Positions 6,836-60,035 of a stretch of DNA of 64,000 nucleotides are shown here, piece after piece. This stretch comes from an uncultured Armatimonadetes bacterium (GTDB lineage Bacteria > Armatimonadota > Hebobacteria > Hebobacterales > Hebobacteraceae): positions 1,920,001-1,984,000 of the forward strand of contig OY970296.1 in assembly GCA_963716175.1 (NCBI GenBank). The letters are read 5' to 3'. The position numbers and the translations under genes are program-made. Below the pieces are notes generated by a model. That model did no database searches and was not told the origin of the DNA. It worked only from the letters and a program-made list of their open reading frames with translations. Position 1 is the first letter of the stretch. The number at the start of each line of letters is the position of its first letter.

Positions 6836-7003
6836 GGATCCCAGGTCGTGTACTTCTCCGCTCGCAGGATCGAAGCAACCCATCCGAGAAAAACGCTGGT
6901 GTACGTCCAGTCCAATCCAGATCATCGTCGGTCTCCTCCTGATGAGAGTGTTTGTACTTCGAGCACCTTTCAACACCAACAGGGGGAGACCGTCTTATGA
7001 TAG
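6836..7003 (-). mobile_element. IS110/IS1111-family remnant (left end plus about 30 codons of transposase)
   Basis: AGGAGG then MIWIGLDVHQ (RuvC-like GLDVH) from 6925; element end begins CTATCATA like the IS110 at 49321. Confidence 0.75.
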
Positions 7004-7222
7004 TCAACCGCTCGTGAAACCGGCCTGAGGGCACCCTCGACTCCGGCTACCCCCTCGGCTGGGAGTCAGTGGTCGGGGTTTGGTCGCCATGCAGGCAAGC
7101 GCACTGCCCAACGCGAAAGCGGCGCCCGAAGGCGCCGGACCCTGGCTTCAGATGATACAGGAGTAGGACCGCGCTCTCAACCCTAGCGTGCACTCAGGCC
7201 GGTTTCACGGGCGGGTGAGAGG
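7003..7222 (+). repeat. Array repeat R1 (core flanked by inverted arms)
   Basis: GTCAACCGCTCGTGAAACCGGCCTGAG + core GACTCCGGCTACCCCCTCGGCTGGGAGTCA ... CTCAGGCCGGTTTCACGGGCGG. Confidence 0.9.
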
Positions 7223-7467
7223 CACACCCTGGAGCGGTACGGTGCGGGGCAGACCGTCCTGACGCCCTACCACTGGAGGGGGTTCGGCTTCCGGGGCGAA
7301 TGGACGGGTGACCCAATCGGCGCCGCCTCTGGTCTAACAGCAGACGACAACGACGACGGCGGCGTAGAAGACGAGGTTGGGGTTTCTGTCGGCGGTCGCC
7401 GACTGTCATACGTCTTTCGGGACGGCGGCTGTGTCCCCGTCGCCAGTACGTGTGAGGGGAGGAAGAG

Positions 7468-9603
7468 ATGACCCGAGTACTGTTGGCTTGCCTCATGCTG
7501 GTGGCCCTGCCCTGCGTCGCCTCCGCGGCATTCGAGACGCCTCCCTATCAGCCGCTCCAGATCGAGGCCCAGGTGCCGTCCTACCAGGTGAAGCCGGACC
7601 TGAGCAACATCGTCAACCTCAAGCAGTTCGGCAAGTTCACGGCCGGCCAGAAGTCGCTGCTCGCCAGGCAGGCATTCTTCGCGGCCCCGGCCAATGACAA
7701 GCAGCTCTACCTCGTCTACGAGGACAACGACTACAAGGTCATCCCCAACTTCATCGCGAGCGACACGGTCCTCCAGCTCTACCACATCTTCTATGACTAC
7801 AGCCTGCGGGAAATGGAGGCGGAGCGCCTGATTCCTCTCTGCCAGAAGCTGACCCAGCACATGCTCGCGCAGTCCGCATCAACCTACCACGATCTGCCAG
7901 CGAGTCCTGTGAGGGGCGCCGCCCTCAGGAACGTCGCCTACTTCGGAGTGGGGGCGAAAGCGCTGGGACTCTCCGCCGATCTCCCGCCGGAAGCGCTGGA
8001 GATGGTTGAGCAGGAGTGGAGGAGGATCCTGAAACACGAGGGCAGAGAATCATCGGCGATCTTCCCGTTCTCGGAAGACTACTCGCAGTACGTGCCCCGC
8101 GGTCACTATACCCGTAGCGAGAAGCTGAAGCGCTATTTCATCGCGATGATGTGGTACGGGCGGATCCCGTTCCCGCTGGAGTGGCCAGAAGGCAAGCACG
8201 ACTACGAGCAGATCCGCCAGTCCCTGCTCATTGCCCGCACCCTCTACGAGACCAAGCTCAACGGTAAGCCGGTCATCGAAACCTGGGAGCGCATCTACGA
8301 GCCCACCGTCTTCTATGTGGAGAGCGCGGATGATCTCACGCCGGCGGAATGGCGAGAGACCGCGCTCAAGGTCTGGGGGCGCCTGCCCGGGCCTGCGGAG
8401 CTGGAAGACAAGGCCAAGCTTGACTCATTCTATGAGCTGGCATCGGAGATGCGCGCTCCCGGCATTGCCACCTTTCCGAAGGGCGCTGTGGGACTGCTGG
8501 ACATGCCCACCGGCCCCCAATTCCGGTTCATGGGTCAGCGGGACATACCCGACTCCTACATGCTCCAGCAACTCGTGTTCAGCTACGTGGGTACGACGGA
8601 GAATCGGAGAATCATGCCTTTGGGCATGGACGTATTCTCCGTCCTTGGGTCAGCCCGTGCCTACGGCCACTTGGTGCGCCTCGGCGAAACGAAGTACGCG
8701 CGCTATGACCAGCAGATGAGCAAGCTCAAGGCCGAGTTCGCCGCCAAGCGCGACCAGGACTGGCGCGAAAACCTCTACTGGGGATGGCTCTGGGTCCTCA
8801 GGGGCCTAACGACGCCAGTAGGCGCCAGCAATCCATCCTTCATGCAGAGCGACGCCTGGCTCGACAAGGAGCTGAACTCGGCTCTGGCAAGCTGGGCCGA
8901 GATGCGACATGATACCATCCTCTATGCAAAGCAGAGCTATACTTCCGAGTGCGGAGGAGGAGAGGAGCCGGGGAAACAGCCGCCGGTGCCTAAGGGCTAT
9001 GTCGAGCCAGTCGCAGAGGTCTATCATCGCCTGCTCTGGCTCACTCAGACGACGCGCAGGGGCCTGCGCGACCGAGACCTTCTCACCACCGCGCTCGACG
9101 AATCTTTTGGTCGAATGGAAGACCTGCTCGCCTTTCTGGAACGCGTTTCGCTCAGAGAGCTGGCGAACCAGCCCCTGAAGGCCGGGGAGTACGACCAGAT
9201 CCGTCTGCTGGGCGCGGAGCTTGAGGGCCTCACTGACATGGTTACCAAGGCCATCGGGGGCCAGGAGGGAGAGCTGATCAGCGAGGCCGACGAAGATATG
9301 GCGGTGGTGGCTGATGTGCACACCGCCTTCCCTGATTGCCTGGAGGAGGGCGTGGGCCACGGCAACCACATCTTCGTGGTCGTCCCCATACAGGGTAAGC
9401 TCTATCTCGCCCGGGGCGCCACCTTCTCCTACTTTGAGTTCGATCAGGCCGTCAGCGACCGGCTGACTGATGAGAAGTGGCAGGCGATGGTCTCGTCCAA
9501 GAAAGCCCCCGCGCCGCCCACGTGGACGTTCAGCTTCCTCAGTGACGCCAAGCCCGAGATCCCGGTGCCGAAGCTTCCCCGTACCTCTGGGGGAGGCTGC
9601 TGA
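7468..9603 (+). CDS. Secreted DUF3160-domain protein
   Basis: Signal peptide; DYSQYVPRGHYTRS, MRHDTILYAKQSY, GYVEP, RLTDEKW. Confidence 0.9.
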   Translation: MTRVLLACLMLVALPCVASAAFETPPYQPLQIEAQVPSYQVKPDLSNIVNLKQFGKFTAGQKSLLARQAFFAAPANDKQLYLVYEDNDYKVIPNFIASDTVLQLYHIFYDYSLREMEAERLIPLCQKLTQHMLAQSASTYHDLPASPVRGAALRNVAYFGVGAKALGLSADLPPEALEMVEQEWRRILKHEGRESSAIFPFSEDYSQYVPRGHYTRSEKLKRYFIAMMWYGRIPFPLEWPEGKHDYEQIRQSLLIARTLYETKLNGKPVIETWERIYEPTVFYVESADDLTPAEWRETALKVWGRLPGPAELEDKAKLDSFYELASEMRAPGIATFPKGAVGLLDMPTGPQFRFMGQRDIPDSYMLQQLVFSYVGTTENRRIMPLGMDVFSVLGSARAYGHLVRLGETKYARYDQQMSKLKAEFAAKRDQDWRENLYWGWLWVLRGLTTPVGASNPSFMQSDAWLDKELNSALASWAEMRHDTILYAKQSYTSECGGGEEPGKQPPVPKGYVEPVAEVYHRLLWLTQTTRRGLRDRDLLTTALDESFGRMEDLLAFLERVSLRELANQPLKAGEYDQIRLLGAELEGLTDMVTKAIGGQEGELISEADEDMAVVADVHTAFPDCLEEGVGHGNHIFVVVPIQGKLYLARGATFSYFEFDQAVSDRLTDEKWQAMVSSKKAPAPPTWTFSFLSDAKPEIPVPKLPRTSGGGC

Positions 9604-9902
9604 TCCTCCGGCGATTGCTGTGGATGTCAAGTAGGCTTGGGACACCAGGCTGGGAGTCTGGATCGTGTTCTGCGCCTGACGGATGACAGCAGGACGGTGG
9701 GGGTGGCCGGGTCGAGGGGACAGGACCGCGGTAGACGCGGTGACGCGCGCCGGGCTGCGAAGTGACACCGGTCGCGGTCGGCAGGGAGGTCAGGCGGCGA
9801 GCCGTTAGCCGGTGATCCGGGTATCGGCGAAGACGCAACCCTCGATAGTGGCTGGCAGTGTCCTGGCTGACTTCTCCGGCCTGCTCCGCTCTTCTTCGTG
9901 TG

Positions 9903-10062
9903 CGACGCCCCCGGGCACCCCCGACTCCGGCTACCCTCGGCTTGGAGTCATTGTTCGGGGTTTCGTCGCGGACCATCTGCTGCCGGCATTCCTAGACACG
10001 CGGCCAGACGCACCCCGGTTGGAGGCGTGATGTCAGGCCGGCTTCACGGGCGTCTGACAGGG
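9903..10062 (+). repeat. Array repeat R2 (full length)
   Basis: Core + GACACGCGG + GGCGTGATGTCAGGCCGGCTTCACGGGCG..TGACAGGG. Confidence 0.9.
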
Positions 10063-11353: not shown

Positions 11354-11500
11354 GCGTGTCTCGGCCCCCATAGGGCCGTCCTGGGCGGGTTCTGGGCTTG
11401 CGCCGGCTGACTCCCTCCCCTACCATCTGGGGCCGGTAGGCGGTGCCTTCGGGTGCCGCCCAATGCCCAGGCGTCAGCACGCGTGGAGACCATTGCGGAT

Positions 11501-11660
11501 GTCCCCGTACACCCCCGACTCCGGCTACCCCCTCGGCTCGGAGTCACGGCCCGGGGCTCAGTCGCGTAGCGTCGAGCTGGGGCTCTTCCCGGACACGCGG
11601 GTCACGCCTTTCCGGCTAGCGGCGTGATGTCAGGCCGGCTCCGCGGGCGCTTCACAGGCA
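11501..11660 (+). repeat. Array repeat R3 (full length); a solo arm follows at 11738-11757
   Basis: Core and distal arm match the consensus. Confidence 0.9.
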
Positions 11661-11956
11661 CAGCTGGGCTTACCGTCGGGGTGCCGCCCGCGTGCGGCCA
11701 GTTGCTCAGCTAACCTCCGCCGTGCTAGAGACCTCCGAGGCCGGCTTCACGGGCGCTCGACACCCACACCCGGGCCTACGGCGTTGGCCGGCGCCGGCCG
11801 GCGCCGGAATGCTGGCATACCGGGACGAGTACAACAACTACCCCCACAATGACGGCGGGATCTCGGAGGAGGGGCCGTACACCCTCGCGGTGAACGCGCC
11901 GAAGAAGGCCGGGTATTGAGAGGGGACGTCGGGCTCCCAGTGACAATGGGGACAGG

Positions 11957-13337: not shown

Positions 13338-13500
13338 CGACGGCCCCGGGCAGCCTCGACTCCGGCCACGCCCTCGGCTGCGAGTCACGGCCCGGGTTTC
13401 GTCGCGGGTCGTCGAGCGAGGGCTCTTCCCGGACACGCGGGTCACAGCCTTTCGGTTGGCGGCGTGATCTCAGGCCGGCTTCACGGGCGCTTCACAGGCA
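13338..13500 (+). repeat. Array repeat R4 (full length)
   Basis: Core variant GACTCCGGCCACGCCCTCGGCTGCGAGTCA plus distal arm. Confidence 0.9.
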
Positions 13501-14603: not shown

Positions 14604-14792
14604 CTCCCAGTTCCTCCCAACGCAGCCCCCAGCGCTCGACCATCGTGATGTACTGAAACTGATCTGGGGGTTTCTTCGGCAGGTGCCGAGCGGGACCTGC
14701 CCTCTCGCGTGGTTGGTGGGTCAGGTTTCGGATGGCTCGCGCATCGCCGAAACGGAGTCGACGGCGCCCGGCCACCCCCAACTCCGGCTCCC

Positions 14793-16085
14793 TGTGCGGA
14801 CCGGTTACATGGGTAACGGATGTGCCGAGTACATAGGTAACACTTCTACTCCGCCTTCGGGCACTCCCCTAGTGTCAGGCGTTTGATCACCTGATGGCAG
14901 AAGAGCACCTCCACCAGGCCGTCGATATCAGTGGCGCGCACGGCCACCGGCTGACCGCGGAAGGCCTTGGAAACGGGCAGCAGACGCCCCCCGAAGTGCA
15001 CCTCGCCCCCACGCTGCACCTTGCGCACCGGCAGCCCCGGCGGGTACTGGATCGGCTCCAGCTGCGCGGGGTAGGCGCGCAGGCTGGGCTGGTAGCGACT
15101 TGCCGGCACCTCCAGCGCGAGCGCCTCGTGAGGGCGCAGGAAGTTATATTGCTCCCGCCACGGATCCAGGTGCGCCTGCAGGTGCTCCCCGTCTCGCCAC
15201 TGGTGCCGCGCCAGCAGCTCTCGCTGCAAGCTGCCATGGAAGCGTTCATCCTTGCCCACGGTCTGGGGATGGTAGGGCCGAGAGTGAGTCACGTATATCC
15301 CCAGCCGCATCAGCCACACCGCCAGCGCCCCATATGCGTCCGCGGCCAGATCTCCCCAGGGACCTCCATTGTCCGACAGCATCGCCTCCGGCACCCCATA
15401 GTGCCGGAAAGCGGCCACTAGCGCCGCCTGCACGGAGCACCCGTCCTGCTTGGGCAGCGCCTGCAGAGAGAGGGCAAAGCGAGAATGATCGTCCAGCACG
15501 CTCAGCACGTGCTGGGGACCCGTCTGCGTCGCTACCGGCGCCTTGAAGTCCATCTGCCAGAGGTCGTTGGGCAGTGGGCGCTCGAAACGCACCCAGGGGC
15601 GCTGACCCGCAGGCGAGTCCGCACCGATGAGCGCGTGCCGATGCAGGGTCGCGGTAATGGAGCTGGTGGCTGGCACGGGGTGGAGGCCCTGGTTGCGGAG
15701 CAGCCGGCGAAGCTTGCGGGCTCCCCAGCACGGGTGCGCCTGGCGGAGCGCCACGATTGCCTGCTGGGTGGCTGCCGGCAGTTGCGGGCGCCTCCGGTGG
15801 GGCCGGCGGGAGTGATCCCGCAAGCCCACTTCCCCGGCCTCAGCAAAGCGATAACACCATTTGTAGCCGATCCTGGGGCTGATGCCGAAGCGGCGGCACA
15901 GATCCCGAAACGGCACCCTCCCCTGCTGGGCGAACATCACAAACTCCCGTCGCTGCTGCTCCACGGTAACTGGCTCCCAGGGCATGGCCCCTCTCCTCTA
16001 GGAAGAGATGCATGCCTCTATAGTAACCGCTTGCCCGTTACCTATGTATCCGGTACGAGTGTTACCTATCTATCCAGTCTGTACA
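14793..16085 (-). mobile_element. IS481-family insertion sequence, copy 1 (1293 bp, 5-bp TSD CTCCC)
   Basis: TGT...ACA ends, two tandem ACATRGGTAAC-type units at each end, same length and translation as 53971-55263. Confidence 0.95.
14846..15985 (-). CDS. IS481-family DDE transposase
   Basis: MPW start, HTH, WQMDFK, LDDHSR, SDNG, HPQTVGKDERFH. Confidence 0.95.
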   Translation of the reverse strand: MPWEPVTVEQQRREFVMFAQQGRVPFRDLCRRFGISPRIGYKWCYRFAEAGEVGLRDHSRRPHRRRPQLPAATQQAIVALRQAHPCWGARKLRRLLRNQGLHPVPATSSITATLHRHALIGADSPAGQRPWVRFERPLPNDLWQMDFKAPVATQTGPQHVLSVLDDHSRFALSLQALPKQDGCSVQAALVAAFRHYGVPEAMLSDNGGPWGDLAADAYGALAVWLMRLGIYVTHSRPYHPQTVGKDERFHGSLQRELLARHQWRDGEHLQAHLDPWREQYNFLRPHEALALEVPASRYQPSLRAYPAQLEPIQYPPGLPVRKVQRGGEVHFGGRLLPVSKAFRGQPVAVRATDIDGLVEVLFCHQVIKRLTLGECPKAE

Positions 16086-16220
16086 CTCCCCCCTCGGCTG
16101 GAGTCGCTGCCTGGGGTTCGGTCATGGATAGTGGTCAGAACCGCGGGTCATTCTGCACTGGCCCGGGTCAGAGCAAGGCTGCGGCGGTCTCAGGGCGAAA
16201 TGACTACTTCAGGAGGTCTT

Positions 16221-19200
16221 GTGCAGGCCATGCGGAGTTCGACTGTCTTCCCCAGTTCCCGATGGCAATCCGCTCTGCGATGTGGTGTGTTCGCGCTGCT
16301 GGTCATCATGTTCGCCCTTGCTTCGGAGGTTGGAATGGCTGACGCTCTCCAGTCGCCTGGGAACGCCGCGCCCGCGCGCATCTGCCGCTGGTACGGCGGC
16401 AAGAAGGCAGCTGTGAGCCTGCGTTTCGATGACTCGGATCCCAGTCACATCGAGCAGGCCGTGCCGGCGCTGAACGAATACGACCTGATCGGCACCTTCC
16501 TGGTGAACCCCGGAACCGATGACTACCCTAGGCACAAGGCGGTCTGGGAGGGGCCGGTGCTCCAGCGCGGACACGAGCTGGGCAATCACACGATGAACCA
16601 TGCAGGCGCCGATGCGGACGAGGAGGCCGAACAGCAGATCGGCGGGGCGGCGGAGCTGCTCCACCGGCTGCAGCCTCGGCTGAAGCTGCTCGTCTTCGGG
16701 CCCGGGGGCGGGACCCGCTGGTTTCAGCGGAAGAGCCTGGAGTTCTTCGAGGCCAAGTATGGCCTGGTTTCCGCGGGCGAAGCCGCCAGTGGATGGGCGA
16801 TGTCGTGCACCGAGACATATTCGAGCTGGAGCGTTCCGCGGTTCGCCGCGGAACTGGAGCAGGCCGTGGCACAGGGGGTCTGGTTCCGGCCCTACTTCCA
16901 CGAGATCCGGGAACGGCCCGGCAGCCTGTCCATGAGGCCGGAGACCTTCCGGCAGGTTCTGGGTGTCGTGCAGGCCCATCGTGCCGACCTGTGGCAGGCC
17001 GGCATGAGCGCGATCCACCAGTACGAACGAGAGCGCCTCGAGGCGCACCTGTGGGTGCACGCCACCGGCGCGGACACCGTCGCCCTCTCTCTCACCTCCG
17101 CCACCGATGGAAGCCTGTACACGCAGCCACTCACGATCGAGGTGGACTTGCCGGCCGAGGCCGACACAGTGGCCGTGACCGCGGAGACGGGGGAGACGAT
17201 ACCGGCTCGCATCGAGCAGGCCGACGGACACCGGGTGGCGCGCTTCGAGGTACGCCCGGCTGACCTGACCTACATCGCCCGCGCGAGGGGTGTCGGCGTG
17301 CACTGCCGGACGGGGGAGATGAAGCCGCCGGGCACACACCCCTACCTCCTCTTCACCGCCGCCGAAGCGCCCGCGGTTCTCGGCAAGACGAGCGACCCGT
17401 TGGCGAAGACGATGTGGGAGATGATCCTGCGGGCGGCCGACTCCTTTGTGGCCGAAGCCAAGTCGGAGAACCCGAAGGACCTGGTGATGTGGGACTGGTC
17501 CCGCCGCATCGAGGTGCTCGGCCTGGCCTACTCCCTTACCCACAACGAGGCCTACGGCCGGGTCGGGGCGAGGTTCCTCCTGACCGCGGCGAGAGATGAC
17601 TCATGGCATGGCGGGAAGACGGAGATGCGCGTCACCGGCGAGGTCATGGGAACGCTTGGCCTGGGCTATGACTGGCTATACGACGCCCTCACGGCGGAGC
17701 AGCGCGCGGAGTTACGCGACGTCGTGGTACGGTACGGCCTGGAGCCGTTCGCGCACGTCGCCGCCACGGGCGACTTCTGGACGGACTGGTATCGCGGCAA
17801 CTGGGGCGCCGTCATCTACAGCAACGCGGGACTCGCGGCGCTATCCCTCCTCGGCGAGGAACCCAGAGCGGCCGACTGGGTGCGCCTGTGCGAGCGGAAG
17901 CTGTGGCGCTACACCATGGCGATGGGAGAGGACGGCGGCTGGGGGGAGAGCGTGAGCTACGGGTCCTATGCGTGGTCCAACGGGCTGAAATTCCTGCGCG
18001 CGCTGCGCCGCGTTACCGGGGACAATCTACTCGACAGCCCCAGACTGCGTCGGCTCCCCTACTGGTTCATCAACCTGCTGGACACCGATCGGCGGAACTA
18101 CGTTCCCTTCTCCAACTGCGGCCTGGGGGTGAGCGCGTCTCCGGAGGTGTTGGCTCTTCTGGCCGGTGAGTACCGCGATGGGCATGTCCAGTCCGCGGCC
18201 CAGGAGTTGCTGGCGCGCCGGGAGCGGGCGGCCGTCTTCGCCTTCCTTTGGTATGACCCGAAGGTCGAAGCCGCGGCTCTCTCCGAGTTGCCCCTCACCC
18301 AGGTGTGGCCCGACCTCGGCTGGGCGATCATGCGGAGTTCGTGGGATGACCCCAAGGGCGTGCTCTTTGGCCTCAAGGGCGGTCAGCAGGACTGGGATCA
18401 CCTCCATCACGACCTCAACAGCTTCGTGCTCTACGCCTACGGCAAGCCCCTGATCGCAGAGCTGTGGTACCCGATGCGGGTATGGGGCTGCGAGACCGAG
18501 GCGCACAACACGATCATGGTGGCCGGCAAGGAGCAGTACGGAGAAGTCGGCATCATGGGCCAGGGCAGCGCTCCGGACTCCTACCACCGCGGGATCATCG
18601 GAGATGCGCTCGACACCGGCGGCGAGGCGTTGCGCACGCCGTGGTACACGCGGCTGGTGGGCGATGCCTCGTTGGCCTATGAGCCGAGTGACGTGCAGAG
18701 CTTCGTGCGCGAGGTCATGTACCTCCGGCACGCCGTGCCGACCGATCCGGATGACTACTTCGTGATGCTCGATGACGTCAGGGCCACACACCCCGCGCGG
18801 ATGGATTGGATGCTGCACACCTATGGCGACATCATGGCGTCCGGCCGCACGTTCACGATCGTGCAGGATGATGCGGCTGTGGAGGTCACCATGGTGGCGC
18901 CCGAGGAGTTCGTGGTGGAGAACCACGAGAAAAGCCTGGAGGAGATCAAGGCGCCCAAGCCCTTCGAGTCGGCCCGCGCCCTGAAGTACATCAAGGTGCG
19001 GGCGGCACAGCCGGCGGACCGGGGATGCTTCCTGTCCGTACTGGCCCCCCGGACCACCTCGGCCCCGAGCGGCGCACGCGTCACGCCCCTTCGCCAGTCA
19101 GGCGTGGTAGGGGTCATCGTCGACTCGGGCGGGACGCAGGACGTGGCGCTGTTCGCGCTCGACCAGCCGCAAATAGTGGCGGCCGGTGTGGAGGCGGCGG

Positions 19201-19917: not shown

Positions 19918-19985
19918 CGACGACCCGGGTATCCCCCGACTCCGGCTACCCCCTCGGCTTGGGGTCACTGCGCGCGGTTCCCCCG
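19918..19985 (+). repeat. Array repeat R6 (short)
   Basis: Core match; abuts the stop codon of the next gene. Confidence 0.85.
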
Positions 19986-19986
19986 C

Positions 19987-21733: not shown

Positions 21734-21768
21734 CACGTGGAGGCAGACGGCTCTCTGGACACTACGAA

Positions 21769-23798: not shown

Positions 23799-23819
23799 GG
23801 CTTCCCTCTACCGGGTCAC

Positions 23820-47529: not shown

Positions 47530-47660
47530 CTCAGTGCTCTCGCGTTCATCCGGTCACTCGCGAGCGGCTCCCCATTCTGATCGTGGTCTCCGGCGGCGCG
47601 CACGCGCGCCTGGCTCTCTGGCGCGCGTTGGGGCGTTCTCGTTGCCTTCCACACCAGTTG

Positions 47661-48293: not shown

Positions 48294-48400
48294 TCCCGCT
48301 CCTGTTCCTGGCAACAGCAGTTCCGGCGGCGGCTGTTCGATCCCCCAGGTCCGAGGCGCCGGATATGGGGGAAGACGCACGAACGCTGTTAAGGCGCTTG

Positions 48401-48766
48401 CTACTCGTTGAGAAGAACGGCCAGGACCTCCGATACCATTTTGGAGTCGAAAGGCTTCAGCAGGCAAAGGCCAGCGCCAGCGGACAAGGCCTCACCCACA
48501 CGCTCGTCATGCGCCGAAGCCGTGATCATGACGAAGGTCGCCTTCGGGAGGACCGGGCGGATCGCTCGAAGGACCTCGAGTCCGTCCAGTTCGGGCATCT
48601 TGATATCGAGTAAGACGACATCGAACGCTTGGCTACGGGCCGCGAGGATGCCGAGTCGAGGCGATGTGTGAGTGGTCACCTGATGGCCCTGCTTGGTCAG
48701 AATGTCGCTGAGCAGTGTGCAGACGATCTCGTCATCATCGACCACCAGCGCCTTCAGCGAACGCAT
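48401..48766 (-). CDS. Single-domain response regulator
   Basis: LVVDDD, LLDIKMPELDG, KPF. Confidence 0.92.
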   Translation of the reverse strand: MRSLKALVVDDDEIVCTLLSDILTKQGHQVTTHTSPRLGILAARSQAFDVVLLDIKMPELDGLEVLRAIRPVLPKATFVMITASAHDERVGEALSAGAGLCLLKPFDSKMVSEVLAVLLNE

Positions 48767-49103
48767 GTTCCCCTCTTTCCCGAGTAGACTGGGCCACTAC
48801 CGTATTCATCTTCATCCACTTAACCATTCTCTGATTCCATACCTGAGCCCCAGGATGACGTCAACTGGCGACGAAACCCCGTGGGTGTGTCACGTCGTTG
48901 AGACACTGATTCCTAGGCAGATGCGGGCTTTGCTGACCTCAGAGGCGCGGGCACGGGAACGACACAGCCGTGGGGATGGGACGGCGATCATAGAGCTGGC
49001 AACGCCTACCAGGGCGCGGCCGGGGGCCCGGAGTCGCGAGGCGCGGCAGAGCGCGTTTCGAAGCGCACGAGTCCCTACCAAACGTCCCTGGCATCGAACT
49101 CCC

Positions 49104-49216
49104 GAAGCCGTCCGATGCGGAGAAGTTTCGATGACAGCAACATTCCCTCCACCACTTGGGAATTGAACTCCGGTCTGGCGGCCCCCCGTTCCCAGGTCAG
49201 CTCCTCGATGGCGATA
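49104..49216 (+). repeat. 113-bp direct repeat, copy 2
   Basis: Near-identical to 42447-42559. Confidence 0.85.
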
Positions 49217-49320
49217 GCCGCTGTTGTCGGCCTAGCGCCAGAACTGGCGTTATCGGCCCAGAACGAGCGTTCCCCGTCGAGACGGATGCAGCGCAAGGGG
49301 GTGGGTCAGTTTCCGATGAA

Positions 49321-50717
49321 CTATCATAGAAGCGGCTTGCCCTCGCGGTGCCGAATCAGAGGCCTGACCGATAGCCTCAGAGGAGGACAAGCCAGAGATG
49401 CTCTATGTGGGATTGGATGTGCACAGCCAGTGGACCACGCTCCGGGGCTTCGATCCCGAGACCGGCGAGATCGTGGAGCGTGCGCGCATCAGCAATGAGC
49501 CGGAGGTGATGGCCGTCGTGCTCGGGGAGCTGCCCGGCCCTTTGCACGGGGTGATGGAGACGGGAACCAATGCCTGGTCCATGTATCGCGTGCTGAAGCC
49601 CTACTTCGCCCGCCTGGTGATCGCGGACCCGGCGCAGTTGTGGGATCGCAAGCGGGATCGTAGTGCGAAGACGGATCGGCGAGATGAGATGCCCTGCGCA
49701 TGGCGCAGAAGCTGTATCGGGAAGAGATCAAGGGGATCTATGTACCGGACGAGCATACCCAGGATCTGCGGGTATTGGTGCGGGGCAAGGTGCGAGCGAC
49801 CCGGTGGGTGACGAAGCTGGTGAACGAGATCGGATCGTTGTTGCGGTGCTGGGGGGAGGTCGAGTCCAAGAGCCTGCTCTCGAAGCGGGGGAAGGACCAC
49901 TTGGACGCCGCGCAGTTGCCGGGACATTCGGCGCGGGTGCTGGAGCTGTGGCGAGAGATGCTGGAGAAGGCGCAGGAGATCGAGGCGGAGCTGGAGGTGG
50001 CGATCAAGGAAGAGGCCGAGCGTGACGCGGTTTGCGCGCAGTTGCGCACGATGCCCTCGGTAGGGCCCTTCACCGCGTTGGCGGTGCGAGCCGAGATCGG
50101 CGACATTCGACGCTTCCCCAGTTCGGCGGCATTGATCTCCTATGCCGGCCTGGCACCACGCGTCTTCCAGAGCGGAGAGCACTGCCGCTATGGGCCCTTG
50201 GGACACCGGGGCAATCCCTGGCTGCGGTACGCACTGGGCCTGCTGGCGAACCGGATGGCCTGCCAGGGCAAGGGCAGTCGCCTGCATCAGCGCTACTGGC
50301 GGATCCAGCTGCGGGGGCATCGCAATGGCGCCAAGATGGCCGTGGCGCGAAAGGCCACGCATCTGATCTACCATCTCTTGCGCACCGGGCAGCCGTGGCG
50401 GGAACTGGCACCGGAGGAGCACGTGCAGGTCACGGTTTGATCGCGAGCGGCTGGAGCTCGCACCCTTGGCGGGAGCACTCCCCCTCAATCGGCTAGCCGC
50501 GCAGACGGCTCTCGATGAACTGGGAGGCTCCCCATCCGCGACGATAGCATGCGCCCCGGAGCGCCGATAGCGAACTCGCGAGAAACCAGCCGCGCACAGA
50601 TCCTGGGCGAGCCACGGCGGGCTCCACCACAGCGGGGGTTCCGCCCTTGCGGCTCGCGGAGAACGCATGTGACGTGAGGAAAGAAGGCACTGATGAGGAC
50701 TTGACGCCGCTTCTATA
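49321..50717 (+). mobile_element. IS110-family (IS1111-type) element
   Basis: Subterminal IRs ATAGAAGCGGC (49326) / GCCGCTTCTAT (50706); ~280-bp non-coding 3' end. Confidence 0.85.
49398..50440 (+). pseudogene. IS110 recombinase frameshifted by a GAGAT duplication at 49681-49690
   Basis: YVGLDVH, METG, KTDRRD, SYAGLAPRVFQSG, AVARK. Confidence 0.88.
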
Positions 50718-51111
50718 GCGCGCCGATTGACAGTCCGTTGCGCCCGGCGTCTCCCACTTCGTCCCAGACCCACTCGATTGGACCAGGCTGGCGCGGATGT
50801 ACAGCCTCCTCGAAGGGTACGGCAAGGGCAACCGAGTGGAGACGGTCGCGGTCGGAAGGGGTGCTTTCCTGGTTCCCCGGTCGGTGCCGGTGCCCTCGCT
50901 TCCCTAGCGGGGATAGGCGACCGCATTCGCGGGCACTGCCCCACAGCTCTGTGCAGATCACTCAGCGTGCTGATGAGCGATGCCAACGACCAACCGGCCC
51001 GCGGTGCCGGATCCCACACCCAGCCTCCCCGGCTCGTCCGGCCCGCTTCCCATACCCCTGCGGCCGCCGGGGTGGAATGCGCCGGTGAGGGGGCGGCCGA
51101 GTTGGCGGCCG

Positions 51112-53460
51112 TTACATCGGCAACTCGAACGCGCGCTGCACATATGCCGCCATCTGGTCCCGGGTCACTTGCGCGCTGGGCCGGTAGGTGCCGTCGTCGT
51201 AGCCCTGCACCACGTCGTTCTCCACGCAGGCCTCGACCGCGGTGCCGGCCCAGAACCCGGCCGGCACATCCGGGAACAACTCCGGCGCCGTGTCCATCGG
51301 CTCCCCCAGCTTCACCCACCCCAGGGCGCGGGCGATGAACACAGCCATCTGCCCCCGGTCCACCACCACCTCCGGCCGGTAGTGGGTGGAGTCGTAGCCG
51401 GCCACCACCTCGCGGCTCACCGCGTACTCGATGTACTCGTAGGCCCAGTGGGTGCTTGGCACATCGTCCGGGAACGAGACCTGAGCGGGGCTGGTAGGGA
51501 CATGCTCCTCCCCGCCGGCCAAGGCCCGCGAGATGTAGACTGCCATCTGGTCGCGGGTGACCGGGAGGTCGGGCTGATAGCTAGCATCCGGATAACCCCC
51601 GACGATGTGGGCAAGGGCGCAGGCTCCGATCTGATCGTAGGCCCAATGGTCAAACGGCAAGTCCGCGAACCAAGGGACCCGAAAGCGGACCATCTGACCG
51701 TTCTCGGTGTCCGTTACCCACACAGAGTCATCGTTCGGATTCACGCACACGGATCTCGGGCCAACAAGGTCCCCTCCTCGCCACAGTTCAGCGCCGCTTG
51801 CCGCCAGATGAACGAGTTGGCTGTTCTCCTTGTCGGCCACCCAGCAGGAACCATTTGTCCAGTTGGCCGAGAGTGCCACGAACCCGGTTGCCGCGTAGCC
51901 GCTTCCTCTCCACAGCTCGCTGCCGTCCGAGGCAAGATGCGCGATCCCGTTGGCGTCCACGATCCAGCAGGAGCCGTCGCTGGCGTTGACCGCAACGAAC
52001 CGGGCACCGGATCCCTGCCACAGGATCACGCCGTCGCGTGATAGGTGGACGAGTTCGCCGCCTGCCACCCAGCAGGAGCCGTCCACTGGGTTGACGGAGA
52101 CGGAGACGGGACTGCTGAAGCCGGCTCCTCGCCAGAGTTCCGTTCCGTCGGGAGCCAGGCGCACCACCTCGCTGGTTGACGCAATCGTCCAGCATGAGCC
52201 ATCGGTCGGATCCACGGCGAGGCGCGTTCCGGAGTATGGGACCGGAGGAGGGCCGCCTCGCCACAGCTCGTCACCATTCTGCGCCAGATGGACAATCTGG
52301 TGGTGCAGGTCATCAGCAACCCAGCAAGAGCCATCCGCCGGGTTCGCTGACACATCGTCTGGCTCGTAGAAGTCTCCTCCCCGCCAGAGTTCAGCCCCAT
52401 CCGCCGCGAGATGCACAACCTGGTCGTTGGAGGTATCGGCTACCCAGCACGAGCCATCCGTGGGGTTGACGGACACGGCCTCAGGCCAGTTGCAGCCGCT
52501 GCCCCGCCACAGTTCGGCCCCGTTCGCCGCAAGATGCACGATCTGGTTCTGGCCCACGTTGGCCATCCAGCAGGATCCGTCTTGCGGGTCTGAGGATACG
52601 GACACGGGGCCGAAACCCATTGCCTGCCACAGTTCCTCGCCGCTCTCGCTCAGGAGCAGAATCTGCCGGTGGTATTCGTCGCCGACCCAGCAGGACCCGT
52701 CGACCGGGTTCACTGCTACGCAGTAGGTCGGGGAGAGGCCGCCGCTCCACAGCTCGGCACCGTTTGCCGCTAGGTGCTTGATGTGGGCACCTCCGACCCA
52801 GCAAGATCCGTCCGTGGCGTTGACGCTGACGGAGGAGGCACGGCCATCTACTCGCCACAGCTGTGTCCCGTTGGCGTCCAGGTGTGTGATGCCAGTAGAA
52901 TCCCCAACCCAGCAAGAGCCATCGGCTGAGTTCACGCAGACCGACTTTGGTGCAGGGAATCCAGGGCCTCGCCACAACTGCGACCCGTTCGCAGCCAGGT
53001 GCACCACCTCGTCGCTGCCCCAGCTAGCCACCCAGCAGGAGCCGTCCGAGGGGTTTGCGGACACCGCCATGGGATAGGTGAAGCCCTCCCCTCGCCACAG
53101 CTCAGAACCATCTGCCGCCAGATGCACCACCTGATTGTGGTAGGTGTCAGCCACCCAACATGACCCATCCGTCGAGTTGGCCGAGACCGAGGTAGTAAAG
53201 GCCTCGCCATCCGGGCCGAGCCAGATGGCATTGCGGAACCCATTGGTCTGACTCAGGATCACACCGCTGTCGGCTAGATGCATCACGCTGTTCCCAGTGG
53301 CCGCCCAGCACGAGCCATCCGTGCGGTCCAGCGACACTGCGAGAGGGGTTCCGAACGGGCTGCGCCAGGCCTCGATGACTTCTTCGGCTGGTGCAGGACA
53401 GGCCGCAAGGCAGAGGATGAAGCAGAGTGTAAGGCCGAGCAGCAGGCGACGCGTTCTCAT
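51112..53460 (-). CDS. Secreted NHL-like repeat beta-propeller with three SLH domains
   Basis: About 14 repeats of VSVNPxDGSCWVAD...HLAAxGxELW; SLH tail. Confidence 0.88.
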   Translation of the reverse strand: MRTRRLLLGLTLCFILCLAACPAPAEEVIEAWRSPFGTPLAVSLDRTDGSCWAATGNSVMHLADSGVILSQTNGFRNAIWLGPDGEAFTTSVSANSTDGSCWVADTYHNQVVHLAADGSELWRGEGFTYPMAVSANPSDGSCWVASWGSDEVVHLAANGSQLWRGPGFPAPKSVCVNSADGSCWVGDSTGITHLDANGTQLWRVDGRASSVSVNATDGSCWVGGAHIKHLAANGAELWSGGLSPTYCVAVNPVDGSCWVGDEYHRQILLLSESGEELWQAMGFGPVSVSSDPQDGSCWMANVGQNQIVHLAANGAELWRGSGCNWPEAVSVNPTDGSCWVADTSNDQVVHLAADGAELWRGGDFYEPDDVSANPADGSCWVADDLHHQIVHLAQNGDELWRGGPPPVPYSGTRLAVDPTDGSCWTIASTSEVVRLAPDGTELWRGAGFSSPVSVSVNPVDGSCWVAGGELVHLSRDGVILWQGSGARFVAVNASDGSCWIVDANGIAHLASDGSELWRGSGYAATGFVALSANWTNGSCWVADKENSQLVHLAASGAELWRGGDLVGPRSVCVNPNDDSVWVTDTENGQMVRFRVPWFADLPFDHWAYDQIGACALAHIVGGYPDASYQPDLPVTRDQMAVYISRALAGGEEHVPTSPAQVSFPDDVPSTHWAYEYIEYAVSREVVAGYDSTHYRPEVVVDRGQMAVFIARALGWVKLGEPMDTAPELFPDVPAGFWAGTAVEACVENDVVQGYDDGTYRPSAQVTRDQMAAYVQRAFELPM

Positions 53461-53970
53461 CCGACCCGCCTCTGACGTCAGAGTCCGCGCAGGGCGCGGT
53501 ACTGCTGGAGAGGAACCGAACTGCTGATGCCCCATACCACGCGGCACTCAGTTCGCCTGCTGCTAGTGCCTGAGATGGCACCCAGGAACGACCTCACAAC
53601 CCAGAGGGGACAGTGTCTGGCTGTCACACGGGCTTGAGGCATCCGCTTCGCGGCACATGTCAGCCCTCTGCACCTGAGAGCAGGAGTGAAGGACCGCGCC
53701 GACGCTGAGAACAGATCAGGAACTCGGGCCTGTCGGGATCGTGGTTAGCAGAGCGATGGATGAAGACGCGGGGTGGACCCGGGCCCCACGCCGTGAGATG
53801 ACCACGGGCGCCCTTGCAGGAGAGTCAGGCTACTAGCCGGTAGGCGGTGATACCGGTGTCGGCAGCGACGCGTCGCTCGAGATGGCGTGCGAGAGTGTTG
53901 GCTGGCTTCTCAGGTTCAGTCCGCTCTTCGACGTGACGAAGGCCCCGGGCACCCCCCGACTCCGGCTCCC

Positions 53971-55263
53971 TGTGCGGACCGGTTACATGGGTAACGGATG
54001 TGCCGAGTACATAGGTAACACTTCTACTCCGCCTTCGGGCACTCCCCTAGTGTCAGGCGTTTGATCACCTGATGGCAGAAGAGCACCTCCACCAGGCCGT
54101 CGATATCAGTGGCGCGCACGGCCACCGGCTGACCGCGGAAGGCCTTGGAAACGGGCAGCAGACGCCCCCCGAAGTGCACCTCGCCCCCACGCTGCACCTT
54201 GCGCACCGGCAGCCCCGGCGGGTACTGGATCGGCTCCAGCTGCGCGGGGTAGGCGCGCAGGCTGGGCTGGTAGCGACTTGCCGGCACCTCCAGCGCGAGC
54301 GCCTCGTGAGGGCGCAGGAAGTTATATTGCTCCCGCCACGGATCCAGGTGCGCCTGCAGGTGCTCCCCGTCTCGCCACTGGTGCCGCGCCAGCAGCTCTC
54401 GCTGCAAGCTGCCATGGAAGCGTTCATCCTTGCCCACGGTCTGGGGATGGTAGGGCCGAGAGTGAGTCACGTATATCCCCAGCCGCATCAGCCACACCGC
54501 CAGCGCCCCATATGCGTCCGCGGCCAGATCTCCCCAGGGACCTCCATTGTCCGACAGCATCGCCTCCGGCACCCCATAGTGCCGGAAAGCGGCCACTAGC
54601 GCCGCCTGCACGGAGCACCCGTCCTGCTTGGGCAGCGCCTGCAGAGAGAGGGCAAAGCGAGAATGATCGTCCAGCACGCTCAGCACGTGCTGGGGACCCG
54701 TCTGCGTCGCTACCGGCGCCTTGAAGTCCATCTGCCAGAGGTCGTTGGGCAGTGGGCGCTCGAAACGCACCCAGGGGCGCTGACCCGCAGGCGAGTCCGC
54801 ACCGATGAGCGCGTGCCGATGCAGGGTCGCGGTAATGGAGCTGGTGGCTGGCACGGGGTGGAGGCCCTGGTTGCGGAGCAGCCGGCGAAGCTTGCGGGCT
54901 CCCCAGCACGGGTGCGCCTGGCGGAGCGCCACGATTGCCTGCTGGGTGGCTGCCGGCAGTTGCGGGCGCCTCCGGTGGGGCCGGCGGGAGTGATCCCGCA
55001 AGCCCACTTCCCCGGCCTCAGCAAAGCGATAACACCATTTGTAGCCGATCCTGGGGCTGATGCCGAAGCGGCGGCACAGATCCCGAAACGGCACCCTCCC
55101 CTGCTGGGCGAACATCACAAACTCCCGTCGCTGCTGCTCCACGGTAACTGGCTCCCAGGGCATGGCCCCTCTCCTCTAGGAAGAGATGCATGCCTCTATA
55201 GTAACCGCTTGCCCGTTACCTATGTATCCGGTACGAGTGTTACCTATCTATCCAGTCTGTACA
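53971..55263 (-). mobile_element. IS481-family insertion sequence, copy 2 (1293 bp, TSD CTCCC)
   Basis: Same ends, length and translation as copy 1. Confidence 0.95.
54024..55163 (-). CDS. IS481-family DDE transposase
   Basis: Same 379-aa protein as 14846..15985. Confidence 0.95.
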   Translation of the reverse strand: MPWEPVTVEQQRREFVMFAQQGRVPFRDLCRRFGISPRIGYKWCYRFAEAGEVGLRDHSRRPHRRRPQLPAATQQAIVALRQAHPCWGARKLRRLLRNQGLHPVPATSSITATLHRHALIGADSPAGQRPWVRFERPLPNDLWQMDFKAPVATQTGPQHVLSVLDDHSRFALSLQALPKQDGCSVQAALVAAFRHYGVPEAMLSDNGGPWGDLAADAYGALAVWLMRLGIYVTHSRPYHPQTVGKDERFHGSLQRELLARHQWRDGEHLQAHLDPWREQYNFLRPHEALALEVPASRYQPSLRAYPAQLEPIQYPPGLPVRKVQRGGEVHFGGRLLPVSKAFRGQPVAVRATDIDGLVEVLFCHQVIKRLTLGECPKAE

Positions 55264-55621
55264 CTCCCCCCTCGGCCGGGAGTCACTGGGCGGGGTCCCG
55301 TCGCGTGTGGGTGGGCGGGCTGCGCGCATCTGGTGGTTCCAGCCTCCAGCCAGATCGAGTGCCCACGATAGACGGGGGGATGCCGTCAGGGCGAGGCTGG
55401 GGCGGCTCTAAGGCGAGGTGACCCCTACAGCTGGGCGCAGGCGGAGAGCATGCTGATCTCATCCTGGGTCTCTACGCCCAGGGGCGCGGCAGCGGCGCCG
55501 AGTCACAGGTGGGATCGTCTCGCCGTTCGGCCGTTCGGCTGTAGTTGACGCCCTCCCCGCGGCCTGTTAGCATCCACGTCGCAGTTGCTCTCTCCACTGC
55601 CAAGGGGGAAGGAGGGGTGCC

Positions 55622-56335: not shown

Positions 56336-56380
56336 CGCGCACGCGTGAGTCAGCCACCGGCCGGCGCCACGCTCGTGCGT

Positions 56381-56541
56381 ACGGCCCCGGTCACCCCCGA
56401 CTCCGGCTATCCCCTCGGCGTGGAGTCACGGCCCGGGGCTCAGTCGCGGGTCGTCGTGCGACGGCGCTTCCCTGACACGCGGGTCACAGCCTTCCGGTTG
56501 GCGGCATGATATCAGGCCGGCTCCATGGGTGGCTGACAGGG
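56381..56541 (+). repeat. Array repeat R16 (full length)
   Basis: Core plus distal arm; close to R7. Confidence 0.9.
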
Positions 56542-58424: not shown

Positions 58425-58510
58425 GCCAACCGCCCGTGAAGCCGGCCTGAGGCCACCCCCGACTCCGGCTACCGCCCCGGCTTGGAGTCACTGGCCGGGG
58501 TTTCGTCGCG
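58425..58510 (+). repeat. Array repeat R17 (inverted left arm + core)
   Basis: GCCAACCGCCCGTGAAGCCGGCCTGAG + core. Confidence 0.9.
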
Positions 58511-58620
58511 CATATGGGAGCTGGGTCGGCTTGCCGTACCGGCCTACGGCCCTTGGAGGTCCCTCAACGGCGGCAGGGATAGAGTCCACCCCGGCGAACA
58601 GCCCCGCAAGTCGGCACGGT

Positions 58621-58741: not shown

Positions 58742-58859
58742 GCATCACCTACGTGAGCAAGGAAGCTTACGGCCCCCAAGAGGATCAACACCTGGAGTTC
58801 GGGCATTCGCTGGAGCAGTTCGCTGATGCCTGACGTCGCGGTGCAGGAGGTGCAGCGGG

Positions 58860-59936
58860 ATGCGTGACTTCCACATCGGTCGTCTTGCTGCCGTGATCTG
58901 GCTGGCATATCTGTGCGCTGCTGGCGCTCGATGCTCGTCGGCAGACATGAGCTCTCTCCTGGGCATCGGCGGCACATATCAGCCGATGAGCGGTGAATCC
59001 CCAGTCCGCCTTCTTCGCGAGTTCATCCGGATCGAGTTCTCCCCTCGCCTGGCGCGCACGGTCGTCCAGTTCGAGTTCCGCAACGAAGGTCGGCCCCAGA
59101 CGGTCGTCATGGGCTTCCCGGAGCAGGTCATGTATGAACGCGGGAGGTACCAGCGCTTCCGGGCCGAGGCTGACGGATGGCCACTGGCCGCCAGGCCAAC
59201 GCCATGGGTGGCGGAATCATCCGAGCAGCGTTGGGCGCGATGGTGGGTGAGCAAGGTGCACTTCGCCCGCGGGGAGCGCCGCATCATACGAGTACGTTAC
59301 CAGGAACCCCCTGGCATAGACGAGACGGACTGCTACGTGTACCGCTACCTGTTCGGGACCGGGCGCTCCTGGAAGGGAAGCATCGGCAGCGTGCAGGTGC
59401 TGATGATCCTGAAGGTTTTCCCCCTGGATGCCACGGTCACGGCCTACTTGCGGGGCGCGACACGTCATGGTGATCGGATTGCGTGGCAGTTCCAAGACTG
59501 GGAGCCAGACGAGGACGTCGCTCTTGACGTGGCGGTGTCGCCCTACATCACGGACATCGTTTTCGACGGCCACTACCCGAGCCTGTCGATGGAGAAGGAG
59601 CTAAACTTACGGCACGGCCATCTCGCTGGGCATCTCCGCAGCATCGCGGACTGGGCGGAGGGGAGTCTGGCGTGGTCTCGCGGTGAGCGGACCGGCTTCA
59701 TTCATCGGAGGGCTAAGACCCTTGCTCTGACGGTCGACTCAACCCAGGCGTTGCTACTCCCTGAGAAGAGGGAGATCCGGCTTCCGTTCGCTGCCTATAT
59801 TGAGCATGGTTTGCTCCGCGTGCCCGTTCGCGCGGTCTGGGAAGCGCTCGGCTTTTGCGTGGATATGAAGAAGGACGCGATCGGCAACTGGTCCGTGCGT
59901 GTTTGCGATCCACAGAAGCACGGGGCGGCTTTGTGA
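58860..59936 (+). CDS. DUF4424-like protein with copper-amine-oxidase-N-like C-terminal domain
   Basis: FRNEG...MGFPE, YLFGTGRSWKGSI; VPVRAVWEALG. Confidence 0.7.
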   Translation: MRDFHIGRLAAVIWLAYLCAAGARCSSADMSSLLGIGGTYQPMSGESPVRLLREFIRIEFSPRLARTVVQFEFRNEGRPQTVVMGFPEQVMYERGRYQRFRAEADGWPLAARPTPWVAESSEQRWARWWVSKVHFARGERRIIRVRYQEPPGIDETDCYVYRYLFGTGRSWKGSIGSVQVLMILKVFPLDATVTAYLRGATRHGDRIAWQFQDWEPDEDVALDVAVSPYITDIVFDGHYPSLSMEKELNLRHGHLAGHLRSIADWAEGSLAWSRGERTGFIHRRAKTLALTVDSTQALLLPEKREIRLPFAAYIEHGLLRVPVRAVWEALGFCVDMKKDAIGNWSVRVCDPQKHGAAL

Positions 59937-59982
59937 GCCGGGGTATGCACTCCCGCCCAATCGTCGGCTGACCAGCCTCGCT

Positions 59983-60035
59983 CCCCGCCACCCCCGACTC
60001 CGGCTACCCCTCGGCTGGGAGTGAGTGACCGGGCC
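59983..60035 (+). repeat. Array repeat R18 (short)
   Basis: CACCCCCGACTCCGGCTACCCCTCGGCTGGGAGTGA. Confidence 0.85.

Follow-up and report, generated by a model that had tools for sequence, protein, structure and literature searches.

Is a long row of short repeats, all pointing in one direction and lying about one gene apart, a set of sites at which single genes are exchanged? This question is raised by the window analyzed here, a stretch of 64,000 nt corresponding to bases 1,920,001-1,984,000 of one 4.56-Mb contig (66% G+C; the genome is designated as G000). An earlier note, made from the letters of this DNA alone, had listed 18 co-oriented copies of a structured intergenic repeat in the window and had proposed that they may be recombination sites of an integron-like gene capture system. 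On the evidence of their flanks, the copies are shown to recombine with each other in a conserved centre, each arm staying with the gene on its own side. By the same kind of comparison, single genes bounded by repeats are shown to occur in different combinations, within as well as between genomes. The repeat is best read as a new mosaic intergenic element similar to repetitive extragenic palindromic sequences (REPs) and bacterial interspersed mosaic elements (BIMEs). The proposal held for the crossover points, the recombination of genes and the co-oriented arrays; it did not hold in three respects, as no recombinase or HUH nuclease stands consistently at the array edges, the junctions are central in the repeat, and the plasticity of the region extends beyond the repeats.

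Structure and distribution of the repeat

The repeat is about 75 nt long. Conservation peaks in GACTCC-GGCTACCCCCTCGGCTG-GGAGTC, in which a 6-bp inverted repeat encloses a 17-nt spacer that hardly changes between copies. The left arm is of two types. Type a is a 23-nt motif, GTCAACCGCCCGTGAAGCCGGCC, designated as motif A, and type b is CCGAAGCATCC...CGACGGCCCCGGGCA, which on paper is able to pair with the right arm, TGCCCGGGGTTCCGTCGCG. Motif A has 48 matches in the genome at up to 4 mismatches. About half of them sit 33-37 nt upstream of a core, seven are inverted and lie 113-158 nt downstream of a core, and the remainder head the bodies R2 (as reverse complement), R3 and R4, some far from any core. 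One unit, at 7003-7219, has motif A inverted at both ends, and most copies have it on one side or not at all. To the right of the repeat, a module of ~260 nt (R1) follows about 20 copies and a module of ~80 nt (R2) follows about 11 copies. The element is thus a mosaic of modules. As a side observation, the motif YTGTCCVTGTCAACCGCCCGTGAAGCCGGCC (23-30 nt) heads four different short bodies, namely the repeat core, R2, R3 and R4, and motif A is also present outside the arrays, e.g., at G000 12806, 79212, 157155 and 4518683.

The description of the repeat as structured was borne out only in part. In 13 window copies, 96% of cells are paired in the inner stem GACTCC/GGAGTC, which shows hardly any variation, and 61% are paired in the outer stems. 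Every measure of covariation was at or below the shuffled controls in these 13 copies, and 78 genomic copies behaved alike. RNAalifold returned no consensus structure, and the folding energy was not better than that of shuffles (z -0.8 to +1.0). An extended hairpin with the outer stems CGACGG/CCGTCG and CCCCGGGCA/TGCCCGGGG was rejected, being confined to copies with the type b left arm and lacking support from covariation. Conservation is highest in the columns of the loop and of the inner stem. It is the sequence, most strongly that of the spacer, that is conserved rather than the structure, and since covariation is absent, a folded strand is a poorer fit than a duplex site bound by a protein.

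Copies in the window were called by nhmmer with a profile built from the genomic copies, and the 28-nt core given in the note was scanned at up to 3 mismatches. The core scan gave 12 matches, all on the + strand, against 0 in 100 dinucleotide shuffles. In total the window has 18 sites, all on the + strand: 15 copies that are whole or truncated, two that are interrupted by an insertion sequence (IS), and one degenerate trace (Table 1). The profile recovered every site listed by the earlier note, and no significant profile match was found in 1-7000, where the note had seen none, or beyond 60033. Its start coordinates mark real sites, although four of them (7003, 29987, 31761 and 58425) are the starts of motif A, a separate 23-nt motif 35 nt upstream of the core.

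Genes of the window were mapped with a heuristic of our own, based on codon-position G+C and Pfam. Exactly one full-length gene is present in 13 of the 17 intervals between sites, in agreement with the count of about 13 in the note. Among the exceptions, 21642-25718 includes two genes, and 31838-36727, 36769-44148 and 44216-53938 each include several genes, IS fragments and short open reading frames (ORFs). The cargo is unrelated and lies on both strands, again in agreement with the note. It includes DUF3160, a class-III aminotransferase, an enolase-superfamily enzyme, a heparinase-like protein, a DUF1559 prepilin-type protein, a Spy/CpxP-like protein, a SpoU/TrmH methyltransferase, SLH-domain proteins, a hybrid histidine kinase, and several proteins without a family.

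Across the genome, 75 cores were found at up to 3 mismatches, and the profile gave 104 matches. The copies are clustered, not spread evenly: 102 of the 104 are in seven arrays, which occupy 9.3% of the chromosome and are spread over 2 Mb. The median gap between copies is 2.3 kb, and none of 1000 random placements gave a median below 20 kb. Strand switches occur in just 5 of 95 neighboring pairs, the other 90 being direct. The 93 intervals shorter than 20 kb include one gene in 49 cases, none in 12, two in 9, and three or more in 23. All 104 copies are intergenic apart from crude ORF overlaps.

Among 41 sampled genomes of the phylum, the core at up to 2 mismatches was found 60 times in G000, 40 times in G005 and 13 times in G011; five genomes have a single match, and 33 have none. 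G005 and G011 represent a second genus within the family of G000, and in the order as defined by GTDB the repeat is present in three of 16 genomes. The repeat is restricted to one lineage, a small group of Anaerolineales. In G005, all seven contigs with at least two matches are co-oriented. A scan of metagenomes with the core returned at least 119 stretches, and the 80 listed loci were profiled. These 80 loci include 142 copies; 37 loci are multi-copy, and in 35 of these the copies all point the same way; the median spacing is 1.46 kb. The repeat family in general forms co-oriented arrays. The core was found in no stretch of the viral contigs, and the repeat with R2 had no match in the plasmid collection. 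No description of the repeat was found in the literature on Anaerolineae/Chloroflexi integrons, attC sites, clusters of attC sites lacking an integron integrase (CALINs), REPs and REP-associated tyrosine transposases (RAYTs), with supplements outside the scope of the search.

Junctions between repeats and genes

Three pairs of copies in G000 have the same left flank (1917481/1945734, 1060659/2026254 and 1950023/2259804). Within each pair, the two copies are alike through the left arm and part either in the centre or immediately beyond it; the first pair shares a rare left-arm variant, and the third shares motif A. A pair with the same right flank, 1065282/2057688, is near-identical from about CCGGGGTT of the right arm, with 98% identity over 836 nt.

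Two modules were found repeatedly. Module T, an opposite-strand gene of ~1.1 kb, is enclosed by repeats in each of three contexts. Two of these are in G000 and the third is in the sister genome G011, and the outer flanks are all unrelated. Module S is present as three copies in G000 with three different right neighbors: T in one array, the TrmH gene in the window, and a recombinase fragment in the third place. On the metagenome contig L160, S and repeats lie beside orthologs of G000 4.546-4.550 Mb, a region which is free of repeats in G000. Another contig, L122, matches G000 around 49.4 kb at 97% identity, up to a point ~65 nt from a repeat that is absent in G000. Repeat copies are as alike between arrays (0.706) as within arrays (0.717), which fits mixing among the arrays. 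In one run of read mapping (X2), loose ends at 21585, 21758 and 25774 hint at other neighbors at the edges of repeats or modules, with one or two short contigs each; only the covered parts of the window were used.

The explanation put forward here, as plausible but somewhat short of an even chance, is that this REP/BIME-like mosaic repeat is a portable crossover site for single-gene modules and that the exchange is driven by host homologous recombination. The conserved centre, GACTCC/GGAGTC with the spacer, would be the crossover site. A circle or fragment with one gene and one or two repeats could enter at any copy. A single crossover between a circle and a chromosomal copy would place the new gene between two direct repeats, and repeated insertions would build co-oriented arrays of exchangeable modules with one gene per interval. 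Recombination between neighboring direct copies would remove a module as a circle, and a fragment with two copies could replace any unit by double crossover. The default engine would be host homologous recombination acting on 30-75 nt of shared sequence over evolutionary time. In favor of this explanation are the clustering and co-orientation of the copies, the junctions in the centre, the changed neighbors of modules S and T, the likeness of copies between arrays, the foreign cargo and the IS481-family insertions described below.

The arrangement of genes in G011 was compared over ~620 kb around repeats and recombinase genes, regions which were not chosen blind. The window neighbors 16008-19553 and 19987-21312 have orthologs in G011 (79% and 77% amino acid identity) that are megabases apart. 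Adjacent G000 genes with unique G011 orthologs in these regions are still adjacent in 11 of 11 repeat-free pairs and in none of four repeat-separated pairs, a result in favor of the explanation. Seen from the G011 side, all six repeat junctions are non-adjacent in G000. The arrays of G000 hold only 18 of 67 unique orthologs. The G011 assembly is a single 4.66-Mb contig rated 65% complete, and several matches include in-frame stops. This suggests that G011 carries many frameshift errors or pseudogenes, and comparisons with it may therefore miss genes.

Several results weigh against the explanation by host recombination at the repeats. The test of adjacency in G011 is small and not unbiased, the 11 conserved pairs coming from about six blocks and the G011 regions having been picked for repeats or recombinase. 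Of the 31 G011 junctions without a detectable repeat, 20 are also non-adjacent in G000. The regions are plastic in general, and repeats mark breakpoints but not the sole ones; exchange at the repeat cores, which the earlier note had proposed to look for in relatives, was found together with rearrangement away from them. Read mapping in four contig runs gave only repeat-to-repeat joints, whose sides of 20-39 nt have 90% likeness; they were not counted as excisions, the sides being too short (<40 nt), and no crossover was directly observed. A 1.8-kb duplication (window 42486-44309 and G000 2087839-2089661, 97.6% identity) has its left end at no repeat; its right end falls within an inverted motif A that comes after a repeat and R2. 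Homologous recombination on such short homology is inefficient. It also leaves unexplained why the 17-nt spacer is the most conserved part across genera, and this conservation points to sequence-specific recognition by some protein. Finally, the crossover model does not account for the mosaic in which motif A is joined to R2, R3 or R4.

Alternative explanations and known systems

Recognition by a protein is the basis of a second explanation, a dedicated cassette system which is not an integron. A recombinase encoded in trans would recognize the duplex GACTCC-N17-GGAGTC and would excise and insert circles of one gene and one repeat. Such a system is considered unlikely. It is likewise doubtful, at a similar level, that the arrays form a chromosomal store from which one-gene circles are reinserted by a trans-encoded recombinase at any copy, with the gene in either orientation, within and between Anaerolineales genomes. 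The main argument for the system is the strict conservation of the 17-nt spacer without covariation. The arms drift, but the sequence of the centre is kept in two genera and on many metagenome contigs. The co-oriented arrays with one gene per interval, the junctions in the centre, and the same module at unrelated loci in relatives also speak for it. A precedent for the separation of array and enzyme is given in a passage of PMC4889954, in which CALINs are described as cassette arrays without a linked integrase.

No candidate enzyme was found for such a system. G000 has matches to 27 tyrosine recombinases, 7 serine recombinases, 11 IS110-type proteins and 5 HUH proteins, and none of these groups has a constant position relative to the arrays. 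No recombinase linked to the arrays was found at the array edges of G000, in G011 or in the 80 listed metagenome loci, and the suggestion of an intact recombinase or HUH nuclease at the edge of the array was not confirmed. The five matches to PF01797 (Y1/HUH) are at 962134, 1199920, 3132162, 3625861 and 4050831, with the nearest repeat ~70 kb away. The RAYT/HUH, IS110-family and serine recombinase genes were rejected as array enzymes because their positions relative to the arrays are not consistent. Among the 766 ORFs of the 80 listed metagenome loci, no recombinase recurs within the ten largest families; the largest is DUF6785/DUF6784, found at 11 loci. Two further points concern the site itself. 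The 17-bp spacer would be too long for the core of the usual tyrosine recombinases, and the junction is not fixable to one nucleotide.

A multi-copy unit of ~1.1 kb encodes solely an XerC/D-like tyrosine recombinase, and in five cases it is divergent and 7-16 kb upstream of an array. About eight copies are present in G011, the intact ones being 84-88% identical. This recombinase was rejected as the dedicated enzyme, as it is also encoded in G008, G012 and G018, genomes in which no repeat was found, and three of the eight G011 copies have no repeat within 15 kb. It may still be an occasional actor. The unit looks like a mobile element in its own right.

A third explanation, which is given a low probability, regards the repeat as a selfish, non-autonomous element similar to miniature inverted-repeat transposable elements (MITEs) or REP doublets forming hairpins (REPINs). 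It would copy itself into intergenic DNA with a preference for recently acquired regions; single-stranded DNA at the replication fork would set the orientation, and recombination and IS insertion would be secondary. The modular mosaic fits this reading, with motif A heading four bodies and standing inverted at both ends of a 217-bp unit. The five Y1/HUH transposase genes could be counted in its favor, although none of them is within 70 kb of a copy. Also in its favor, repeats adjoin genes whose G000 orthologs have no repeat nearby. Transposition alone explains neither how one gene has repeats at both ends in three unrelated contexts nor why the arms segregate with the flanks, and the total absence of copies from 90% of the genome is left unexplained as well.

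A strand bias set by replication had been offered in the earlier note as an alternative to recombination sites, and it was supported in one genome only. In G000, dnaA is at 1.342 Mb, and the cumulative GC skew rises from a minimum at 1.14 Mb to a maximum at 3.58 Mb; with the origin based on dnaA, 93 of the 104 copies have the top strand on the lagging-strand template, as the MITE-like reading would predict. In G011, with dnaA at 2.648 Mb and the origin taken from dnaA alone, the 33 copies in the regions compared are divided between 18 that agree and 15 that disagree. Replication polarity was thus rejected as a rule. The independent units are the arrays, not the copies, and they are few (seven in G000 and five in G011), so the link with replication is not regarded as shown.

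In terms of family, the repeat is closest to REP and BIME elements. It is GC-rich, intergenic and of high copy number; it has a short palindromic core and a mosaic of accessory modules, it is a hot spot for an IS, and it is associated with genome plasticity. REPs and BIMEs are described in parts of PMC2817692 as distributed genome-wide in alternating or inverted pairs, whereas 102 of 104 copies of the repeat are concentrated in 9% of the genome, are locally co-oriented, and partition the DNA into single genes. The conserved unit is also longer than in REPs, about 75 nt with the conserved 17-nt spacer, and no RAYT is encoded beside any copy. A family of REPs with a RAYT was rejected, since the Y1 genes are ~70 kb or more from the copies and the copies are direct, not in the inverted pairs of REPINs and BIMEs.

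It is very unlikely that the repeat is a host element acting at the level of RNA or chromatin, such as a terminator, an mRNA stabilizer or a site for a nucleoid protein, unrelated to gene movement. The strong conservation of the sequence speaks for such an element, and in the stems the wobble pairs formed by the top strand (G-U and U-G) outnumber the A-C and C-A combinations. The copies have no fixed relation to transcription, however. Relative to the repeat, both flanking genes are co-directional at 37 copies and opposite at 13, while 23 copies lie between convergent genes and 21 between divergent ones, and the presence of copies in every intergenic context speaks against a terminator or another role linked to transcripts. 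The lack of a T-run, folding no better than shuffles, and the absence of copies from 90% of the genome also stand against it. The comparison with Rfam, which the note had proposed, gave no family for the repeat, R1 or R2; permissive scans of the repeat with R1 and with R2 gave only matches at chance level (E >=1).

In function, the arrays resemble those of integrons and CALINs, and more loosely two other systems. The sites are co-oriented at gene-sized spacing with mostly one ORF per interval, and a module, which is re-used across arrays, is made up of a gene with the distal portion of one site before it and the proximal portion of the following site after it. The differences are in the details. 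Integron cassettes are co-oriented, promoterless ORFs, whereas the cargo here lies in both orientations and has its own spacers of 150-450 nt. In attC sites the structure is kept and the loop is variable, whereas the repeat keeps its sequence and the loop is conserved. Crossover in attC takes place in the outer R' box (G|TT), and the site moves in its entirety with the upstream ORF; in the repeat the junction is central, and the arms are split between genes. The note had stated that attC boxes and co-oriented genes are absent, and this is the case: no RYYYAAC/GTTRRRY boxes are present in the consensus and the 75 listed copies. On either strand, only AAC/GTT triplets can be placed (GTCAAC in motif A and GGGGTTCC in the right arm), and the adjoining bases fit neither the pattern nor each other. 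The seven arrays are spread over 2 Mb, and no IntI is encoded anywhere in the genome; the best match to TIGR02249 has 90.1 bits and covers positions 241-301 only, against a cut-off of 265, and all 28 matches are below the cut-off.

A classical integron remnant is accordingly extremely improbable: a CALIN would show co-oriented sites with about one ORF each, and Chloroflexi are named among the phyla with integrons in the relevant part of PMC4889954, but the lack of IntI and of boxes, the conserved loop without covariation, the central junctions, and the cargo in both directions led to the rejection of this identity.

The looser resemblances are to Neisseria intergenic mosaic elements (NIMEs) and to pdif modules. 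In NIMEs a short shared motif flanks several repeat bodies, and in the minimal mobile elements of Neisseria gene-sized units are swapped by recombination. Similarly, motif A heads several bodies, and exchange concerns units of gene size that lie between conserved sequences. NIMEs differ in taxon and sequence, and they are not known to partition long stretches in a single orientation with one gene each. The pdif (Xer) modules of Acinetobacter plasmids are bounded by 28-bp XerC/XerD sites of alternating orientation. They share with the repeat arrays the modules of one or a few genes between short recombination sites, the many combinations, and a recombinase encoded elsewhere. The sites here are co-oriented and chromosomal, and no 11-6-11 layout is discernible in the consensus.

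To our knowledge, no system other than integrons is well understood as a store in which single genes are shuffled at a repeated site. The origin of integrons and the birth of cassettes are standing questions. G000, from an uncultured environmental lineage, has another set of sites, unrelated to those of integrons and without an integrase, that follows their large-scale plan of co-orientation, one gene per interval, and modules re-used in different arrays and organisms. If a dedicated enzyme exists, it would represent a new class of gene-capture machinery and a new tool for site-specific recombination. If host recombination suffices, a short conserved repeat would turn part of the chromosome into a modular pool of exchangeable genes, with consequences for the understanding of accessory-genome organization in Chloroflexota.

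Insertions, cargo and accessory modules

The coordinates of the features are listed in Table 1.

Table 1. Repeat copies and inserted elements of the window, with the arrays and the XerC/D-like units of G000. Positions are those of the window unless G000 is indicated.
Feature	Position	Strand	Remarks
Repeat copy 1	7022-7090	+	motif A at left, 7003-7025; inverted motif A 7197-7219 closes 217-bp unit
Repeat copy 2	9904-9973	+	loop with 2-nt deletion; followed by R2-like module and inverted motif A 10036-10058
Repeat copy 3	11497-11570	+	followed by R2 module and inverted motif A 11633-11655 and 11739-11761
Repeat copy 4	13338-13404	+	with R2 and inverted motif A 13473-13495
Repeat copy 5	14763-16131	+	left half 14763-14791, right half 16086-16131; IS481-family element between
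IS481-family element in loop of copy 5	14792-16075		transposase 14846-15985 on - strand
Repeat copy 6	19919-19989	+	found by nhmmer and core scan
Repeat copy 7	21571-21642	+	with R2 module
Repeat copy 8	25718-25786	+	unusual left arm and 103 nt of left flank common to copy at G000 1917481
Repeat copy 9	27415-27480	+	followed by R1 module of ~260 nt, about 27481-27740
Repeat copy 10	29152-29198	+	cut after GGAC/GGAGT by left end of module S
Module S	29199-30006	+	IS481-like terminus at start; Spy/CpxP-like secreted protein gene 29377-29867
Repeat copy 11	30007-30065	+	motif A 29987-30009
Repeat copy 12	31781-31838	+	motif A 31761-31783; R2 module
Degenerate repeat trace	36727-36769	+	E 0.43, alone not significant
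Repeat copy 14	44148-44216	+	R2 and inverted motif A 44283-44305; right part of 1.8-kb duplication
Repeat copy 15	53938-55309	+	left half 53938-53969, right half 55264-55309; IS481-family element between
IS481-family element in loop of copy 15	53970-55253		second, identical element
Repeat copy 16	56380-56452	+	R2 and inverted motif A 56515-56537
Repeat copy 17	58444-58514	+	motif A 58425-58447
Repeat copy 18	59980-60033	+	last in window; loop with 1-nt deletion, right arm diverged
Array	G000 722-802 kb	-
Array	G000 1034-1084 kb	-
Array	G000 1610-1625 kb	+
Array	G000 1713-1727 kb	-
Array	G000 1904-2104 kb	+	three copies on -
Array	G000 2259-2298 kb	+
Array	G000 2791-2817 kb	mixed
XerC/D-like unit	G000 808917-809822		intact
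XerC/D-like unit	G000 2242368-2243309		intact
XerC/D-like unit	32911-33015		fragment
XerC/D-like unit	G000 2027195-2027470		fragment
XerC/D-like unit	G000 2102651-2103166		fragment

The centre of the repeat is, in addition, the specific target of an IS481-family element. All four genomic copies of this element are at the same position in the repeat loop and in the same relative orientation, with a 4-bp duplication of CTAC or CTCC. They are 99.9-100% identical; besides the two in the window, copies are at G000 1904478-1905761 and 1725530-1726813. The transposase has Pfam matches to rve, HTH_32 and LZ_Tnp_IS481, and other IS481-like termini abut the right stem of the repeat. The four insertions at one position indicate that the transposase is highly target-specific, and it would be a further case of such a transposase. 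REPs are documented as targets of specific insertion sequences in part of PMC1525189.

At least some of the cargo appears to have been acquired, as judged from the relationships of the TrmH/SpoU gene of the window (30557-31441, + strand). It is a second copy, 46% identical to the family-type ortholog at G000 1791104 and 39-45% identical to the other TrmH genes of the family. Its best relatives are copies in other Anaerolineales lineages (59-63%), in records titled as Anaerolineales (Chloroflexota) metagenome bins. Because it is nearer to other lineages than to the copies of its own family, this gene is probably a foreign xenolog. No shared neighbors were found at the loci of 56 relatives, a comparison which is uninformative as these relatives are 49-63% identical.

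Two stretches in the window, 36769-44148 and 47530-51100, consist of short ORFs and fragments of IS630-like and IS110-family transposases, with weak coding signal. They are probably decayed genes inside the array.

The R1 module could be the gene of a small membrane peptide, such as a type I toxin, or it could be non-coding. A known RNA was ruled out by the lack of an Rfam match. On the - strand, R1 has an extended -10-like box (TGGTATTCT), GAGG and ATG, followed by a small ORF (M..DW.GLPVIATVARLL..), which in copy 9 starts from 27558 and runs into the repeat. Changes at third positions keep GLPVIA. The frame fits about half of the copies, and a subgroup has another frame.

At gathering thresholds, the sole Rfam match in the window is a cyclic di-GMP riboswitch (c-di-GMP-I-GGC) at 32165-32256 on the + strand, with 74 bits against a gathering score of 59. 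It is located upstream of a 141-amino-acid ORF without a family (32321-32746).

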